A stretch of DNA of 43,652 nucleotides from a virus, in UHGV virus genome UHGV-0201380; one strand, given 5' to 3'. Positions 6,457-43,506 of the stretch are shown piece by piece. Both the position numbers and the translations under genes were made by a program. The notes beneath the pieces were generated by a model. That model saw only the letters and a list, made by a program, of their open reading frames with translations, had not been told where the DNA came from and searched no databases. The first letter of the stretch is position 1. Every line of letters begins with the position of its first letter.

Positions 6457-8138
6457 TAAGCTGCCTCCTCTGCTTCTTCTTCATCTTCATCGTTGCCCAG
6501 GTACTTCTCTCCCAAGCAATCAGCTGCATGCTCAGTGAGAATTAACCCGTGCACTGGGTGTTCTTCTGCGTGCTCAATAAGCACTTGCCGGTCCTGTGCA
6601 AACACCAGTTCCTCTTGGTCGTGCACTACACCCTCTACTTCGCAGCGCTCTATGTCCTCGTCGTATACATAGGCGTCGTGGTAATCAGACCAGGTGCAGC
6701 TCCAGCGATTATGCAGACCATCACGCCCAACTACGTACACAAAATCCCCTTCTTCTACGCAGCCGTCGCAGACCATATCACCATCTGCGGTCTCCTGCAT
6801 GTCATCTACAGAGTAGCGACATTCACAGCAGCAGCACCGAGCAGACTCAGTGCCTACGTAGATGTATCCTTCTGAGTCTTGTGCCTCGTACTCATAAGCA
6901 TCACGGATTACAAAGGCATCATCCCCATACTCATCTACGCCGCACTGGCTGCTATCTAGGTATGGCATCAGCACTGCGCCGTTGTATGTTGGGTGCGGTA
7001 TTCGCGCCAGCATTACCCCTTCGAGACATTCAATGTTTTTGGTGTACCCATGCCCCCGCAGGATTGCATCCGCAGCGTTGCCGTAAGCGCGGACGTACTC
7101 GTTAGTTTCTGTGTTAACGATTGCCCGTGCCTGCACTTCGAAATCGTCGCCGAACAGCTCCCCGGTGTACTGGATGAACAGGCGCAGCCCATTATCCGGC
7201 AACCCGTGGCTGGTGGTAGCGTACGTCCGCACAGAGCTATGCTCAAATGAGTACCCGCTCATGCAGCTACCCGGGCCATTCTCGTAGGCGTCGTACCATT
7301 CCTGCTCGGTCTTGCACAGGTACGTTGTAGGGTCTACGTTCATAGCCTTGAGGTCTTCGATAGCATCGCGGAAGTCCACACCATTTCCGTAGTAGTTAGC
7401 GAGCCACTTACCTACGCGCATCTCTACGCAGCGGTACTCAGTAACTGCTGCGAAGTCCTTGTGCATCCGCGGCTGCCCCAGCATCACGATAGGTTCGCCG
7501 TTGCGGAAACCAAAGCCCAAAGGCACGGCGAATCTAGACACTACGAAGCCGTGCAACTTCATGAGCAGCGCAGCTAAGTTGCCATCGCGGGTGTGGCGGC
7601 CGTAATCGTAGCCAGTGTATAAGCGGCGCTGCTGCTCTTCTGGTGCAAGCATGATGCGCTCAAATAACTGCACGGCCTGCTTGTGCACCTTGTAACCTGT
7701 GAATTCTTCGACGCAAGCAACTACGCGCTCAACCACTACATCCTCGCCCTCATAGAAGTCGCGGCGGCGTTCCCAGAACTTGCTGTCTATGGTGATTCGC
7801 ACCGGTTCAAAGAGTTCGCAGAAAGTTCCGGACCGGTACAGGTCCACCTTTTGCAACGGGCCGAGCGTCATCGTTGATTCGCGATACTCTGGGTGCAGTG
7901 CCCCGCCTATAGTCACCTCTAAGCCTGGAGTGTGCGCACTGACAGTGCGGAGACCCATAAGCACCTGCAGCGGACCCTCAGTGTGGGGATGGTCCTCCCC
8001 TTGCATTTGCAAGTCCTGGAACGGGGTCCAGTAATCACCGCTGGAATACATTGATTCTTTAATCGGCAGTGCGTTTGCACCTTCCGGTAACACTACTTTC
8101 CATTCGATAGGTGCTGTGTTAGTTTCTTGCATTTTCAT
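6456..8138 (-). CDS. Large early/middle protein of unknown function with Cys cluster and polyacidic C-terminal tail
   Basis: Track ORF is 6456..8426 (656 aa), but its 5' end overlaps the upstream 114-aa gene. ATG codons at about 8138 and 8132 follow a GGGAG Shine-Dalgarno, giving about 560 aa. Contains CCCCECRYSVDDMQETADGDMVCDGC and ends DEDEEEAEEAA. Confidence 0.6.
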   Translation of the reverse strand: MKMQETNTAPIEWKVVLPEGANALPIKESMYSSGDYWTPFQDLQMQGEDHPHTEGPLQVLMGLRTVSAHTPGLEVTIGGALHPEYRESTMTLGPLQKVDLYRSGTFCELFEPVRITIDSKFWERRRDFYEGEDVVVERVVACVEEFTGYKVHKQAVQLFERIMLAPEEQQRRLYTGYDYGRHTRDGNLAALLMKLHGFVVSRFAVPLGFGFRNGEPIVMLGQPRMHKDFAAVTEYRCVEMRVGKWLANYYGNGVDFRDAIEDLKAMNVDPTTYLCKTEQEWYDAYENGPGSCMSGYSFEHSSVRTYATTSHGLPDNGLRLFIQYTGELFGDDFEVQARAIVNTETNEYVRAYGNAADAILRGHGYTKNIECLEGVMLARIPHPTYNGAVLMPYLDSSQCGVDEYGDDAFVIRDAYEYEAQDSEGYIYVGTESARCCCCECRYSVDDMQETADGDMVCDGCVEEGDFVYVVGRDGLHNRWSCTWSDYHDAYVYDEDIERCEVEGVVHDQEELVFAQDRQVLIEHAEEHPVHGLILTEHAADCLGEKYLGNDEDEEEAEEAA

Positions 8139-10134: not shown

Positions 10135-10164
10135 CACATAGCACCCCGTAGGATGCTATAGGCT
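10135..10164 (-). promoter_or_regulatory. Conserved early-region hairpin element, copy 1
   Basis: Same 30-bp element as 9419..9448, here with stem ATAGCA/TGCTAT. Sits about 40 nt upstream of the 191-aa early gene. Confidence 0.4.
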
Positions 10165-10814: not shown

Positions 10815-10966
10815 CTCTTTTTATTGAGTGTCTAACCCTTCACACTATCTAGCTTTAATCCGGCTGAATCTCCCGACTCTGCCCCGGTTAGCGCCTCAGT
10901 GCCTCCCGGTGATTGAACTATAGCCCTATTGAACCAAAAGAAGCAAGTACTTTTTTAAACTTTTTA

Positions 10967-11383
10967 TCACTGGGAGCAAAAAGAGTAAGCAGACCCCCAA
11001 AGGTCTGCGTGCAGTAAACTATTGTAGTCCCCATAAGTCACGTCGAACTCTCGCCAGTTAGTATCGTACTCAGGACTAGCCAATAACTCATCCTTTGTGA
11101 AGCATCTCCCTTCCTGAATCTGTGCTAAGTGTATGGCCCGGTGAGTGTCAGCGCTAACCAGTATCAGGTTATTGAAGTCACAGTTAAGGCGGTTACTGTC
11201 ACAGTGATGTACGTGATAGCCAGAACCGTAGCTAGTGATTCCCAGAGCATCCATAACCACGGCCCTATGCAGCGCCACAGTCTTATAGTCTCTCTTACCT
11301 CGCTTATTCACATACTCAGGCCCAGCACCATTAATCACTGGATAACCTTCCTTATCAACCACAATCTTAAATGTTCTAGCCAC
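10967..11383 (-). CDS. HNH homing endonuclease
   Basis: 138 aa with HVHHCDSNRLNCDFNNLILVSADTHRAIH (HNH core). Free-standing, between the terminus repeat region and the early promoters. A GC hairpin plus T-run overlaps its last codons (about 10975..11008). Confidence 0.8.
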   Translation of the reverse strand: MARTFKIVVDKEGYPVINGAGPEYVNKRGKRDYKTVALHRAVVMDALGITSYGSGYHVHHCDSNRLNCDFNNLILVSADTHRAIHLAQIQEGRCFTKDELLASPEYDTNWREFDVTYGDYNSLLHADLWGSAYSFCSQ

Positions 11384-12205
11384 AACAATATCTCCTTACA
11401 TAGTGATTAGTAGCGTAACCATAGCGACGATATCCCGGAGGGATAGGAGCGGAGGTTACAAGATTCTAGGTAATGCTTCCCTCCCTACGGTCAGTCATAC
11501 AGGGCATTACTAGGGGATACTAGTGACTACTAGTGAGTAGTAGTAAGTAGTGTGTATATAGTGCCCTAAAACCCTCCTACTCCTGTAACATCATTTCATG
11601 ACAGCTTTCGAATGAAAGTAAGAGCAAGGGGATAGCAAAGAGATAGCGCCGGGATAGTGTTGGGTGAGGATGTGCGCCCTAGTGGGGAGCGCGCAGCGTA
11701 GCATATAATCGGCACAATGTAAAGCACTAGGGATAGCCAGTGGATAGCCTAGTGCATACTAGGGATAGCACCGTGACGCACTACAGCGCACTAGGCAGGC
11801 CCACTATGGCCCCACAATGCAGGCACTAGGCGGGCCCACTATGGACGCGCAAAATAAGCAAGGCAGAGCGCACCCCTACGGCCCACAGGGAGCGCACAGG
11901 GATAGCCCCTAGTGCCCCGTAGAGCGCACAGGAGCCACTCAGTGCCACGCACAGGCCAAGCCGTGGGGCAGCACTAGCGATAGCCCCAGCGCAGCGCAGG
12001 GAGCCACTGAGGCCCTCTGAGGCTTCCGCTATAGCCACGGTCTTAGCTGCCGTGGCGCTCCACACCTCAGAGAGCGCCCTAGGGCCGTCTAGACGTCTAG
12101 GCACCCACCCCACCCCTCCTTTTATGCGCTAGGCACCCCCTATGGGGGCAATTGGCGTCGTTGAGGGTGAGGGAGGCTCAAGGGCGAGTATAATAATTTT
12201 TGGTT
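11384..12205. repeat. Non-coding repeat-rich region, probable physical genome terminus or terminal-repeat neighbourhood
   Basis: About 820 bp with no ORF of 60 aa or more on the coding strand. Dense short direct repeats (GGGATAGC about 8 times, CACTAG/CTAGTG about 9 times), a 21-bp direct repeat CACTAGGC(A/G)GGCCCACTATGG twice about 39 bp apart, and tagt-type microrepeats at 11521-11560. Lies between the last late gene and the early region. Confidence 0.5.
11575..11591 (-). promoter_or_regulatory. Candidate phage-RNAP promoter-like motif, copy A
   Basis: Exact 17-mer TCCTACTCCTGTAACAT (minus strand ATGTTACAGGAGTAGGA), one of three identical copies in the window, here within the terminus region. 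Confidence 0.35.
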
Positions 12206-12667
12206 TCAGATATACACCTGCCCCGGGGTGAAGGCCTTGTGTTGCTCTTGACGTTTCTCTAGTACCCACTTGCAGATAACTTCGTAGGAGCTGTGCTTCT
12301 TCATGTAACGCTTACCGTCCTTCCAGAACTCCCCGCGCCAGCAGGTGCCAGTGTAGTATACACCCCTAGGATGTTCCCGCTTAGACCTGCGTGCGTTACA
12401 GTTGTTTTCGCTAACCGTAGCTAAGCGCAGGTTCTCTAATCTGTTGTCACCGGGGTTTTGGTTGATGTGGTCCACCACATATCCGTCTGGAATAGGCCCG
12501 TTGTGTAGTTCCCAGATGAGGCGGTGTGCCTGTATCTTTCTACCAGATACCTGTACCACCCAGTAGCCACGAGTGTTGCGGGTACCCGCTGGAGCACCGG
12601 CGCGCCTACCCTTGAGCCACACCAAGCAGCTAGGGGATGTTGTGTCATATTTGATGTTCATAGACAT
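12206..12667 (-). CDS. HNH homing endonuclease (HNH plus AP2-like DNA-binding region)
   Basis: 153 aa with HRLIWELHNGPIPDGYVVDHINQNPGDNRLENLRLATVSENNCNA. Last gene before the terminus region. The upstream intergenic region carries GTATCTCTA direct repeats. Confidence 0.85.
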   Translation of the reverse strand: MSMNIKYDTTSPSCLVWLKGRRAGAPAGTRNTRGYWVVQVSGRKIQAHRLIWELHNGPIPDGYVVDHINQNPGDNRLENLRLATVSENNCNARRSKREHPRGVYYTGTCWRGEFWKDGKRYMKKHSSYEVICKWVLEKRQEQHKAFTPGQVYI

Positions 12668-12763
12668 ATCCTCATTTTAAAGTCTAATAAATTTCAGGTC
12701 CAGGTATAGACGTGCACCCCAAGTAGTGCCCCGGGATACCATAGAGATACCCCAGGGAGCTAC

Positions 12764-14719
12764 TTAGAGATACACCTCCCAGGCTACCTGGGATACATCC
12801 GCTGCGTTACTACTCCTAATCACGAAGCTGTTTAGGTCCGGATTAGGTGTAGGTACATCCTGGTTCTGTGCTACGCCAGTAACCGTCAAGGCCCCAGCAC
12901 TAGAAGGAAAGGTTAACCGCGTCAACTTGACCTCAGACACCCACTTGAAGGAGTTAGCTACGCTGCCAAAGTTTCCGCGTACACGAGCGTTGACCGTAGC
13001 CTCACCCGCAACCAGTGTTGCCACTCCGCGAATGCTTGTGTCGTCCAGTAAGTTCCTGGACATGCGCGGAGGCGTAGGCTGCACAGTATAACCACTCAGT
13101 AATGCCCAAGACACACCGTGACCGGTCATGTCATTATTGGACATAGATACCATGGTAGGGTTAATGCCCATAGTCCCGTGGAAGTACACAGCTCTTCCGG
13201 TACCGTCGTAGCGCATGCTCACGTCATCAATCTCCAGGGATGTCTGCGCTGTCTCAGCCACATCCTTAGTGACGAAGATGTGAGAGCTGGAGTTGCGCGT
13301 GTACCGACCGCCTTTAACACGGCCCCCGTTGATTCGCACACCATTCTGGCTACCGTGAGCCTCGCAGTCATAAACGTAGCCACCACCGTACGAACAGTTA
13401 AAGCCAGAGCGTACGTTGTCATAAGCTAGGCACTCCCTATAGATAGGGAAGGCTACACCGGTGTTGGAGGCGAACCCGTCCAGAGCTGCACGGTAAGCTC
13501 GACAGTTCAAGTACTCTACCCCGTTAGTGCGCGCTTGGAACCCATCGTCAGCACTGTCGTACGAAACGCAGCGAACGAACTTCACACGCTTACCAATGTC
13601 GTGAGTATCAAATCCAGCATGGGTTGTGCTGTAGGCTTCGCAGTTAACGCCTAAGAACTCGATAGGCTCTCCCCACTTGTCCCCGTCTGCAGTGCTCTGC
13701 CAGTTCAAAGAGATTGCGTGGCGTACGTCCATAGCGTGGATATCGTGTACTTCCGTGTCCTCTGAGCAGCCGAGCACCTCTACCCCGTACCATCCGATGT
13801 TGTAGAAGTACGTACCCTTAACGGTGCTGTCTACGCAGTTATTGAACTTGATAGCGCTACGCCCTTCTATATCAGAAGCCCCTGGGCGTTTGTTGCCAAT
13901 AATAACCCCGTCCTGGATGTGCAAGTCCGCGGCAAAGTTGGCAGAGATACCGATAGTAAAGAACCGGTTCAAATCGTCGTAGCCGAACTCGTTGATGTAC
14001 GGGGATACTAAGGTTACGTTCTCCACCATTGTCGGGATACCTACTTCCGCAGCATCAGACAGGTAGTAGTTATAGTGCAGCGCTTTATCCAGCCGAATGC
14101 TGGTGACGCCACCGGAGGTGCTAACACCCACCACTTTCCTAATCTGGGAAATCTTTACCCCGTAGGTGTTAGGCCCACCGTCGCATAGCTTGTTAGAGCG
14201 AAGATACAAGTACGTACCTTTTACCACAGACAAAGCACCAGCAGCCACCGTAATGACTTTGCTGCCCGCCGCAGCGTCCGCCGCTAACGGTACGAACGCC
14301 GATGGTGCCGCGCCGATAATATTAAGCACCTGACGCGCAACCGCAGCGTCCGGTAGGATTCTTCCGGTATCGGTAAACTCTAGCGTAGAGTTGCTTTTGA
14401 TGTTGAGCACACTCGTGGCCTGCAGGACTGTGTCCACAACCAGGTGCCTATTAGGCGCGCTCATGAACGTGACTATGCCTGCCCAATTGCTGAACCAGGA
14501 GCTGTATGCCGGGCCCGTGAATTTACGGAGCAGATACCCACCGGGCACAGCAAACACAGTCCCGTTATCTACTACCGACGCAGCAGTAGTAAAGGTGAAA
14601 TCCCCACCACCACTGCCCAGTAGGATAATCTTGTCCTGCACCTGAAAGTTTGGATATGCTACCATGCTCGCCAAGTCGGAGAATACCCGCTCTGGAGCTA
14701 CTAATCTAATTAACGCCAT
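12764..14719 (-). CDS. Tailspike protein, probable polysaccharide depolymerase (beta-helix)
   Basis: 651 aa, Gly/Asn/Thr/Ser/Val-rich composition typical of parallel beta-helix tailspikes. Encoded after the lysis cassette at the genome end, as in KP34-like phages. Substrate unknown. Confidence 0.7.
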   Translation of the reverse strand: MALIRLVAPERVFSDLASMVAYPNFQVQDKIILLGSGGGDFTFTTAASVVDNGTVFAVPGGYLLRKFTGPAYSSWFSNWAGIVTFMSAPNRHLVVDTVLQATSVLNIKSNSTLEFTDTGRILPDAAVARQVLNIIGAAPSAFVPLAADAAAGSKVITVAAGALSVVKGTYLYLRSNKLCDGGPNTYGVKISQIRKVVGVSTSGGVTSIRLDKALHYNYYLSDAAEVGIPTMVENVTLVSPYINEFGYDDLNRFFTIGISANFAADLHIQDGVIIGNKRPGASDIEGRSAIKFNNCVDSTVKGTYFYNIGWYGVEVLGCSEDTEVHDIHAMDVRHAISLNWQSTADGDKWGEPIEFLGVNCEAYSTTHAGFDTHDIGKRVKFVRCVSYDSADDGFQARTNGVEYLNCRAYRAALDGFASNTGVAFPIYRECLAYDNVRSGFNCSYGGGYVYDCEAHGSQNGVRINGGRVKGGRYTRNSSSHIFVTKDVAETAQTSLEIDDVSMRYDGTGRAVYFHGTMGINPTMVSMSNNDMTGHGVSWALLSGYTVQPTPPRMSRNLLDDTSIRGVATLVAGEATVNARVRGNFGSVANSFKWVSEVKLTRLTFPSSAGALTVTGVAQNQDVPTPNPDLNSFVIRSSNAADVSQVAWEVYL

Positions 14720-32192: not shown

Positions 32193-33788
32193 TTAACTTG
32201 GTAATAAGCCCAGCTGCTTACCTGCTACTGTCGGGTCCGCTGCTGTCAAGCCCTGGAGTTGGTCCTGTGCTGCACCTGCGGATACATCGGCAGACGCATC
32301 TTGAACCTGTTGCTTCTGCTGCAGCTGCTCTTCGGTGTACATGAACGGCTCGCTGACGATACCATAGGCGTCGAAGTACCAGTCTACACACGCATCCTTG
32401 TTGAAGCGCGGAGTAATCTGCTCAAGCACCGGGATAGCCAGCTGCATGGACTGTGCCGCCTCTAACAGCTTGTCCGCTGCTGCGGCCTTAGCCAGCGCAG
32501 AGGTACCTACTGTAACGTTGATGCTCACCACGCCTTCGCTGAGGTACAACTTAAAGCGAGGGTACACCAGTGCAGTGTACAGGTACGCCAGCTTACGCAG
32601 CCAGGTGTCGCTCAGGATACTGAACCCACCACCCATAGCGGCTTCCGCCTCTTTGGCGTTCTGGCGAATCTCATAAGCCGTGACACGCTCACCCTGCCGG
32701 GAGTTGCCGGTGTACATAAACGCACGAGACAGTTTCTGTTCGAGCATCTGGATGTTGCTGGCAATCCACTGAATCTTCTGGGCAGAGCCGCCCTCGTAAG
32801 CAGTGACAGGAGACTTAGTGTTTCCGTTGGAACCACCGCCGCCCACCTGCACGGCCTCCCCGGTCTCCGCCGTAGAGAACTCGTCCACATCCAGGCCAGA
32901 ACTAGAATCTACTAGTGGAATCAGCCGAGAGGCTTCGACCTCGTAGTTAGTCAGTGCTTCCGACAGTACCGATAATCGGGCAAAGTCCCCAGCGTAGTCC
33001 TCTACCAAGCCGCGCCCGTAGTGCTCGCCACTAACAAGGTTCCACACCAGCACGTTGTAGGGGAGCTCCAGCTCCGGATAGGTGCTGCTGTCCCCGATAC
33101 GGTGTCCATCGGCTTCTTGATACACCTCGTAGCTTACTACCTCTACGCCTTCCTCTGTCCGCTTAACTTTGCGACAAGCGGCAGTGTAGATATCAACGTC
33201 GCCGTATGGGTCTTTGTCACGGTAGAAGGTGTTCTGGAAATCCTCTGGCAGGTCCTGGACGCTTGTGCGCTCTCTGATAATGAGTCGCAGGACGTTCCCG
33301 CTGCCATCCCTTCGAACGGTAAAGTTACGAACTGAGTAGACGATGGATTTACCTGTCCGCTCATCAATATACTCCAACGCGTTACCTGTAACCAGCAGCA
33401 GCTTCACAGCTTGCAACTTCGCAGCATAACCGTCTTTCTCAAATACTTTCTGTGACGCTGTGTTCTCAACCTCAGCCAGCTTAGATTCTGCCGTAGCTGC
33501 ACTGCCCAGCGAACTAATGAACTCGTCCAGGTCCGAACTCTTGGAGAACCGGAAGAAGCTAGTGCCCTGAGGGAACAGTGCCCCTACAATCTTAGTGGCT
33601 GCAGTGTTGACCAGCTGCGCGCCGGTGCTCTGGTAGTCACGCTCTAGCGGTCTGCGTCTACCGTCCAGGGAATCGTCCCGGGTAAAGATAGTGCTGAGCG
33701 TCCACTGCGCGAACTTCTCGGAGGCATCCAATACACCTGCGTCCTGGTCCTTCTTAAAGAGTTCTGCTAATGTTGCTTTTTGTTCCAA
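32193..33788 (-). CDS. Portal (head-tail connector) protein (T7 gp8-like)
   Basis: 531 aa. Motif GERVTAYEIRQNAKEAEAAMGGGFSILS resembles T7 gp8 GERVTAEEIRYVASELEDTLGGVYSILS. Confidence 0.9.
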   Translation of the reverse strand: MEQKATLAELFKKDQDAGVLDASEKFAQWTLSTIFTRDDSLDGRRRPLERDYQSTGAQLVNTAATKIVGALFPQGTSFFRFSKSSDLDEFISSLGSAATAESKLAEVENTASQKVFEKDGYAAKLQAVKLLLVTGNALEYIDERTGKSIVYSVRNFTVRRDGSGNVLRLIIRERTSVQDLPEDFQNTFYRDKDPYGDVDIYTAACRKVKRTEEGVEVVSYEVYQEADGHRIGDSSTYPELELPYNVLVWNLVSGEHYGRGLVEDYAGDFARLSVLSEALTNYEVEASRLIPLVDSSSGLDVDEFSTAETGEAVQVGGGGSNGNTKSPVTAYEGGSAQKIQWIASNIQMLEQKLSRAFMYTGNSRQGERVTAYEIRQNAKEAEAAMGGGFSILSDTWLRKLAYLYTALVYPRFKLYLSEGVVSINVTVGTSALAKAAAADKLLEAAQSMQLAIPVLEQITPRFNKDACVDWYFDAYGIVSEPFMYTEEQLQQKQQVQDASADVSAGAAQDQLQGLTAADPTVAGKQLGLLPS

Positions 33789-42918: not shown

Positions 42919-43345
42919 TCCAGCTCCTGTTACTTATTACGTCACTAATTACATGTACACCTACACCGTACTTATTAGCAAAGTGTTGCCGCATACCTTT
43001 CTTGTATGGGATATAGTTATCCCTGATATCCTGCACAGCATCCCAAGTTAACTGCGCTTTTGGGTTCCTATCCCCACGCACATCTGGGTTCCTTCCGCGC
43101 TCTGCACGGTCCCGCATATTATCCATATGCGTTCCCAATACTAAGTGCTTAGGGTTAATGCACCTGGGGTTATCGCAGGTATGTCTAACAGACAGGCCAG
43201 CCAGCGCCCTTATATCCAGCCCGTTATGCTCAGCATACACCACCCGATGCAGCAGCTCCAATCGCCTGGTCGGCTTATACCATGCCCGGCGGTATCCGTT
43301 CTTGTTAAGGCATTTGTTATACCCGTGGTCAATACACATCGACAT
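42911..43345 (-). CDS. HNH homing endonuclease
   Basis: 144 aa with HRVVYAEHNG ... HTCDNPRCINPKHLVLGTHMDNM. Overlaps the phosphoesterase start by 8 nt. Confidence 0.85.
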   Translation of the reverse strand: MSMCIDHGYNKCLNKNGYRRAWYKPTRRLELLHRVVYAEHNGLDIRALAGLSVRHTCDNPRCINPKHLVLGTHMDNMRDRAERGRNPDVRGDRNPKAQLTWDAVQDIRDNYIPYKKGMRQHFANKYGVGVHVISDVISNRSWNA

Positions 43346-43506
43346 TCGGTATCCTCTTGTGTTGTTCCTACTCGTATCACATTAATTCTCTGTGAATCAC
43401 AGAATCAAGCTAGAGTCAACAAATAATTTTATTTAATTATTTAGTTGACCCCAGTGTATTTCCATGCTACCCTAACCCCCTACACCACCCAAGGGTCCAC
43501 CTATCA

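Follow-up and report, generated by a model that had tools for sequence, protein, structure and literature searches.

The phage genome UHGV-0201380 was analysed as one stretch of 43,652 nucleotides (hereafter the window), in which a sole large gap lies between the last and the first genes, and the question raised by this gap, at positions 11384 to 12205, is what function, if any, such a stretch performs. A sequence-only reading had described it as a repeat-dense non-coding region and the probable terminus of the genome, with a copy of a promoter-like motif. Our analysis indicates, with a probability that we put at about 0.88, that this is where a KP34-like Klebsiella podophage has its concatemer junction, which appears as a single stretch through the collapse of the direct terminal repeats (DTRs) and the circularisation of the assembly.

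The window is the genome of a Drulisvirus (KP34-like) Klebsiella phage in reverse complement. When compared with phage records using BLAST, ~250 Drulisvirus records matched, with a best whole-genome identity of ~92%. The last 400 and the first 400 bases of the window, when joined, align as a single piece to RCIP0044 at 99.6%; thus, the ends of the window are contiguous in that phage, and the window represents a complete, circularly permuted genome. All long ORFs in the ORF list of the window are on the minus strand, along which virion coordinates are given as v = 12172 − window position + 1. The genes that matter for the interpretation of the region are the following:

36995→34527, minus strand: T7-type RNA polymerase, 822 aa (Pfam RNA_pol, E = 6.6e-90, and RPOL_N)
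18686→18384, minus strand: small terminase subunit, TerS, 100 aa
18384→16528, minus strand: large terminase, TerL
14719→12764, minus strand: K1-capsule lyase tailspike, 651 aa, just upstream of the right-end HNH gene (Pfam)
12667→12206, minus strand: HNH endonuclease, the last gene, downstream of the depolymerase gene (Pfam)
11383→10967, minus strand: HNH endonuclease within the non-coding leader, start codon at v790 (Pfam HNH_3)

The tailspike matches all three K1-capsule lyase domains, and therefore the host is probably a Klebsiella with a K1 capsule, as for NTUH-K2044-K1-1 and phiK2044. The HNH gene in the leader is present in only 16 phage records, compared to the ~250 that match the surrounding region, which is indicative of sporadic insertion; this insertion sets the lower edge of the region (11384), and the non-coding leader runs on beyond it to ~10367. 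The right-end HNH gene is missing from AttikonH4. Comparison of the two HNH genes that flank the junction revealed no relationship to each other, and both look like mobile homing endonucleases rather than packaging components.

To locate the ends, we relied on 12 relatives whose records start and stop at the physical ends of the DNA (KP34, fHe-Kpn01, KpV71, Dlv622, JKT6, KPPK108.1, AttikonH1, AttikonH4, SAA231, VKV295, NTUH-K2044-K1-1 and P29). For fHe-Kpn01, blunt ends were established experimentally with Sanger sequencing, fragment ligation and restriction digestion, together with PhageTerm (PMC7291057), and P29 contains an exact terminal redundancy of 288 bp. At the left end, 11 of the 12 records open with (C)CTCACCCT(C/G)AACG...CCCCCATAGGGGGTG, corresponding to the window from 12172 downward, and the remaining record, that of VKV295, starts ~38 nt further in than the others. 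The right edge of the DTR, corresponding to window positions 11866-11864, reads ...GGGGTGCGCTC(TG) before the boundary and (TG)CCTTGCTTATTTTG after it in 10 of the 12 records (in the longer form, ...GGGCC(A/G)TAGGGGTGCGCTC(TG) followed by (TG)CCTTGCTTATTTTG). The DTR of fHe-Kpn01 stops at the homologous position, with diverged sequence, and that of KPPK108.1 is annotated as shorter; the annotated boundaries vary by 1-2 nt among the relatives. Projected onto the window, these comparisons yield the following features, in the order in which they are met along the gene strand:

12173..12205, minus strand: unique right-end spacer, 33 bp, from the stop codon of the last gene to the start of the DTR (junction sequences align)
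11866..12172, minus strand: DTR of ~307 bp in a single collapsed copy, boundaries ±2 nt (match to the ends of relatives)
12128..12172 (v1-45), minus strand: near-invariant left-terminal block CCTCACCCTCAACGACGCCAATTGCCCCCATAGGGGGTGCCTAG (10 Drulisvirus left ends)
12148→12136, minus strand: C-box CCCCCATAGGGGG, inside the left-terminal block
v45-180, minus strand: variable stretch with many indels, in which relatives have a run of 10-13 G
v185-307, minus strand: conserved blocks with three TGCGCTC
11866..11928, minus strand: these three TGCGCTC copies, all on the same strand (plus-numbered starts 11922, 11890 and 11866; v245, 277 and 301), the last of which ends precisely on the right DTR boundary
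11850..11865 (v308-323), minus strand: conserved post-DTR motif TGCCTTGCTTATTTTG, a candidate cut or pause signal (conserved in relatives)

Thus, alignment to the terminal repeats of relatives places both boundaries at homologous ends, in agreement with the proposal of a genome terminus: the left physical end of the virion DNA would lie at window position 12172 and the right boundary of the DTR at 11866 (±2 nt). The window contains one copy of the DTR because the assembly collapsed both copies. In KpV71, the same 33-nt spacing separates the HNH gene, which ends at 42988, from the DTR, which starts at 43022. The block around the right boundary of the DTR is highly conserved in the alignment. 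Repeat tracts that differ in copy number are interspersed with the conserved blocks at the two boundaries, and this explains the range of DTR lengths across the genus (181-311 bp). RNA folding of the right boundary, of the left end and of a hairpin upstream of the phage promoter described below gave z-scores of −1.3, −0.9 and −0.4, respectively, no better than shuffled sequences.

Two other elements were observed in the variable part of the DTR. The G-rich tract GGAGGGGTGGGGTGGGTG (12103-12120, minus strand; v53-70) sits at the position of the run of 10-13 G in many relatives; differences in length and sequencing errors are likely to arise from it, and it might form a G-quadruplex. The near-palindrome TAGACGTCTAGAC (12088-12100, minus strand; v73-85) contains a perfect AGACGTCT (v77-84), which is the MetJ-box sequence; among the 9 relatives in the alignment, 5 have the segment and 4 lack it, and given this absence, the MetJ-box reading was dropped. 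A resemblance of the ACTAGT repeats to TrpR half-sites was likewise set aside, since the spacing does not fit.

Under the concatemer junction interpretation, the order along the gene strand would be the HNH gene as the last gene, 33 bp of unique DNA, one DTR of ~307 bp (12172→11866), and the leader of the left end. During infection, genomes would be joined head-to-tail through the DTR; by analogy with the T7 model, cuts by TerS and TerL would then fall on the conserved block at each boundary, with duplication of the DTR such that both virion ends carry a copy. Within the leader, a sigma70-like element (11723→11695) would serve as a host promoter, and a phage promoter (11593→11578) would fire toward the early genes, as suggested by the in vitro activity of the identical KP34 sequence. 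The weakest step concerns the short repeats: the one-strand, helix-phased arrays would be sites at which a packaging protein binds, our best guess being one such as the small terminase subunit.

The resemblance to the T7 concatemer junction, which comprises a 160-bp terminal repeat, SRL repeats (CCTAAAG), the phiOL promoter and the class II pause site ATCTGTT, is considerable in layout. In both cases, there is a conserved terminal box, short same-strand repeats start inside the DTR and continue to the right, the end is followed at 400-600 nt by a phage promoter, and host promoters, which in the window are predicted ones, are located further in. The expectation of T7-like repeat arrays on both flanks of the DTR was, however, only partly confirmed: same-strand units do start inside the DTR and continue into the left unique region, whereas the right-end side, where the last gene and the DTR are just 33 bp apart, has no repeat array, unlike T7. 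Other differences from T7 are that the repeat units are CCTAGTG and GCTATCC rather than CCTAAAG, that TGCCTTGCTTATTTTG rather than ATCTGTT directly follows the repeat, and that the RNA polymerase gene is located in the middle of the genome, as in phiKMV.

The motif that had been noted as promoter-like occurs 4 times in the window, compared to 0.02 expected by chance, and the copy in the region turned out to correspond to S2, one of the strong promoters that Lu et al. (2019; PMC6834552) described for the KP34 RNA polymerase, with the sequence T(A/G)ATGTTACAGGAGTA. In that work, S2 (KP34 nt 475-490) and S1 supported in vitro transcription by this polymerase with similar efficiency. The copies and their surroundings in the window are:

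11593→11575, minus strand: copy A of the motif, TGATGTTACAGGAGTAGGA
11593→11578 (v580-595), minus strand: predicted S2 promoter, TGATGTTACAGGAGTA, directed toward the early genes (exact 16-nt match to KP34 S2)
34520→34505, minus strand: S1 copy, right after the polymerase gene
22612→22597, minus strand: S1 copy, inside the gene for the 1232-aa gp16-like internal virion protein (KP34 equivalent, nt 33721-33736)
11508..11560 (v613-665; core 11518-11551), minus strand: CTAG/'tagt' microrepeat in 10-bp phase, just downstream of S2 (40-43% GC compared to 54% for the genome)

This exact match, in a genome that encodes the cognate phage RNA polymerase, points to a KP34-type phage RNA polymerase promoter at 11593→11578. 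At position 10 of the promoter, all three window copies have A, and all three AttikonH4 copies (548, 23175 and 34698) have C; the left-end copy thus changes together with the other two, which argues that the left-end promoter is functional, and suggests co-evolution of promoter and polymerase specificities in the genus. Many relatives have variants such as TGAAGTAACCGGAGTA at the S2 site. The three-copy layout (left end, just behind the polymerase gene, and within the gp16-like gene) is the same in KP34, and given the copy inside the gp16-like gene, the late genes downstream of it may have their own transcript. A degenerate fourth promoter-like copy, TAATGTGATACGAGTA (43369-43384, minus strand), differs from S1 by 3 mismatches; it is retained with the same mismatches in AttikonH4 (13671-13686), upstream of a gp5.5-like gene, and does not figure in the promoter set published for KP34.

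The position of S2 also bears on an alternative, in which the region is additionally, or mainly, a replication origin: by analogy with phiOL, the promoter-associated secondary origin of T7, transcription from S2 would open the AT-richer stretch of 10-bp repeats for priming. The distance of the promoter from the left end (~580 nt) is similar to that of T7 phiOL (nt 405), the 75-100 nt downstream of it are at 40-43% GC in a genome of 54%, and its co-evolution with the other copies implies that it is under selection. However, the AT enrichment is modest compared to T7, the cumulative GC skew shows no inflection at the region, and the primary origin of T7 is not at the end of the genome. Moreover, S2 has a simpler job, since in the window the HNH gene and then the early genes lie downstream of it. 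An origin in the region is therefore, in our assessment, unlikely, and concatemer processing, with S2 transcribing the early genes, is the preferred reading.

The repeats themselves are as dense as had been claimed. Every repeat family that had been named was recovered where it had been placed, and the density is far above chance: the region contains 62 pairs of repeated 8-mers, compared to 10.0±4.2 (maximum 29) in shuffled sequences and 10.2±4.1 (maximum 27) in 206 segments of equal length (822 nt) from elsewhere in the genome. There are 4 exact copies of GGGATAGC on the plus strand (11629, 11730, 11762 and 11899), whereas the mean in 1000 dinucleotide shuffles is 0.05 and none of the shuffles reaches 4. 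The hexamer GATAGC is found 7 times on the plus strand of the region and 0 times on the minus strand. The CACTAG/CTAGTG family has 9 copies in the region on each strand, compared to 16 in the remaining 42.8 kb. The main arrays, together with the promoter-like element that they flank, are the following:

11789..11844, minus strand: 21-bp repeat CACTAGGC(A/G)GGCCCACTATGG, two copies (11789 and 11824) with a period of 35 bp and none elsewhere in the window
11629..11770 (v404, 425, 436, 526 and 537), minus strand: GCTATCC(C) arrays on one strand, spaced 11 or 21 bp, flanking the sigma70-like element
11695..11723 (v450-478), minus strand: sigma70-like TTTACA-N17-(TGc)TACGCT, a candidate for the leftmost host promoter

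Read along the gene strand, the 21-bp repeat is CCATAGTGGGCC(C/T)GCCTAGTG. The number of its units differs among relatives, with several in Dlv622: the boundary of the DTR is followed by a variable number of CCTAGTGGGCC-type units, which in the window are the two 21-bp repeats. Of GCTATCC, there are three copies at v404-443 (21 and 11 bp apart) and more GCTATC(C) at v515-545 (11 bp apart); in Dlv622, the unit forms an 11-bp tandem array. At the position equivalent to the 10-bp CTAG microrepeat, fHe-Kpn01 has TACTAGTCCT three times. Altogether, the repeats occupy the right two-thirds of the DTR and the sequence to the right of it. Across 13 genomes, the GCTATCC, CTAGTG, TGCGCTC and GTGGGCC families recur, with the exception of fHe-Kpn01, which lacks the last two. 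Three of the four families (GCTATC, TGCGCTC and GTGGGCC) are confined to one strand: GCTATC occurs 4-9 times per genome in the forward orientation and 0 times in the reverse orientation in the 13 genomes compared (7 and 0, respectively, in the first 700 nt of this genome), and TGCGCTC is forward in the genomes that carry it (12/13).

The sigma70-like element is invariant in the alignment, and all 13 genomes contain the pattern TTTACATTGTG...TGCTACGCT. A scan with the sigma70 consensus called no site inside the region, and terminator-like matches there were weak; the element escapes the scanner because its −10 hexamer matches at only 3 of the 6 positions. Conceivably, the GCTATCC and CTAGTG arrays could be operators for a phage or host regulator of the leftmost promoters instead of packaging signals. 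The GCTATCC units, which within the genome are almost confined to this region, are placed 11 or 21 bp apart on one strand, bracket the sigma70-like element and end just upstream of S2, all of which would be in accord with such a role. Nevertheless, no candidate regulator was found, the same motif families are present also within the DTR, far from any promoter, and copy number varies freely among relatives. Regulation through these arrays thus appears doubtful, and binding of a packaging protein is the function that we favor for them.

The variation in copy number and spacing, which is wide between close relatives and includes the 181-311 bp range of the DTR, is also what would be expected if the short repeats had no function at all, but were by-products of slippage and unequal recombination in non-coding DNA that is close to the ends and under no constraint. 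This possibility, too, we regard as improbable, given that the same motifs persist in 13 genomes and that three of the four families show strict strand bias. The distribution of CTAG also speaks against it: the tetranucleotide reaches 19.5 per kb in the region, compared to 2.15 per kb elsewhere (~9-fold), which makes the region the segment richest in CTAG of a genome in which CTAG is depleted outside it (108 observed genome-wide vs. 141-167 expected).

The absence of a convincing ORF, which had been part of the initial description, was upheld. The longest ORF in the region (95 aa; 11826-12113, minus strand) has no Pfam match; comparison with 9 relatives showed no third-position bias in its substitutions (178/143/162 by codon position), and each relative has 5-9 frame-breaking indels. 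The ORF was rejected as a gene on this evidence. A permissive Rfam search of positions 10900-12800 produced no match, and a tRNA/tmRNA scan found none. That the region encodes small proteins, as some GenBank annotations have it (KpV71 gp01, NTUH ORF1, AttikonH4_1 and _2) and as the mere existence of this ORF on the gene strand might suggest, is thus highly implausible, the frame being broken in every relative and the first gene starting only at nt 1438 (fHe-Kpn01) or nt 1277 (KP34) in manually curated records.

In comparison with KP34 and fHe-Kpn01, the window is similar in left-end sequence, right DTR boundary, order of blocks and repeat families, and in both phages S2 is likewise located ~nt 475-630 from the left end. 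The differences are in the length of the DTR (~307 bp, compared to 216 bp in KP34 and 222 bp in fHe-Kpn01), which is greater in the window due to extra repeat-containing segments, and in the HNH endonuclease gene inserted in the leader (16 records only). For annotation, this implies that the genome should be linearised from window position 12172 on the reverse strand, with a second DTR of ~307 bp added, for a virion DNA of ~43.96 kb, and that no genes should be called in 11384-12205. The biological addition is small, since the DTR and S2 have already been described for KP34-like phages, and only the end motifs shared across the family appear worth follow-up by specialists.

The first ~45-60 nt of the virion DNA resemble the left end of T7 (z = 7.3, with 0 of 2000 shuffles as good) and, to a lesser extent, that of SP6 (z = 5.2). 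T7 and the KP34-like phages have a 14-mer, CCCCCATAGGGGGT, in common without any mismatch, at nt 25/26. The left ends of T3 and phiKMV contain the C-box but showed no significant similarity over the full alignment. Defined as at least 4 C followed by (A/G)T, the C-box starts at nt 25-29 in 10 of the 10 Autographiviridae ends examined (the window, KP34, fHe-Kpn01, LIMElight, LKA1, phiKMV, LUZ19, SP6, T7 and T3), with a probability of occurring there by chance of 0.5-3% per genome; it occupies positions 26-38 in T7 and 29-38 in SP6, and starts at 26 in LKA1, 25 in LIMElight and 26 in phiKMV. The C-box is not palindromic in T3 and LKA1, and hence the conserved feature is the sequence rather than a hairpin. 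A scan of IMG/VR for the 14-mer was discarded, as it returned many contigs of all sizes, mostly chance matches.

At the other boundary, the shared motif appears to be specific to lineages. In T7, the class II signal ATCTGTT has a role in DNA processing. It is a pause or termination signal for the T7 RNA polymerase at the concatemer junction (bioRxiv 10.1101/2021.01.11.426313), and is found at offset 0 or +1 after the repeat in T7, T3 and SP6; ATCTGTT is absent from the region analysed here. TGCCT takes its place: the offset after the DTR is +1 for the window, KP34, LIMElight and LKA1, and for phiKMV and LUZ19 it is +4/+5 (TGCCT(T/C)T at 415-424 in phiKMV, 473-483 in LUZ19, from 299 in LKA1 and from 278 in LIMElight), and fHe-Kpn01 has the variant CGTCTTACCTATTTTG. 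Global alignment of the right DTR boundary to T7, T3, SP6 and phiKMV was not significant, and only the short post-boundary motif is shared. In phiKMV, LUZ19, LKA1 and LIMElight, whose DTRs are 277-472 bp long, nothing aligns at the nucleotide level apart from the C-box at nt 25-29 and TGCCT(C/T)T 1-5 nt past the DTR; they have 0-7 CTAG in the first 700 nt, compared to 15 in the window, and lack CTAG-rich repeats.

These observations allow a speculative scheme, in which the KP34/phiKMV/LIMElight group would, like T7, couple concatemer cutting to a pause of the RNA polymerase, but via TGCCT(T/C)T instead of ATCTGTT, the GCTATCC/CTAGTG/TGCGCTC arrays would be a platform for the small terminase, and the C-box would be an ancient, family-wide element of the cut site; taken jointly, the three propositions have, in our view, a low chance of all being correct. 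End recognition and cutting are poorly defined outside T7 and T3, and the family-wide C-box, the lineage-specific post-DTR motif and the one-strand arrays could guide work on these processes in T7-like phages.

Other elements that have been proposed for KP34-like leaders were considered for the region and set aside, because they map outside it. The two sigma70 early promoters predicted by Eriksson et al. (PMC4411677) correspond to 10814→10786 and 10745→10717 in the window, in the part of the leader beyond the inserted HNH gene. The hairpin motif AGCCTATAGCGTCCTACGGGGCGCTATGTGAA, proposed as a phage promoter or nick site in the same work (Eriksson et al., PMC4411677), has two copies on the minus strand, at 10164→10133 and 9448→9417; it is not the same as the KP34 promoter that was subsequently validated, and the nick mapped in fHe-Kpn01 is at nt 7873.
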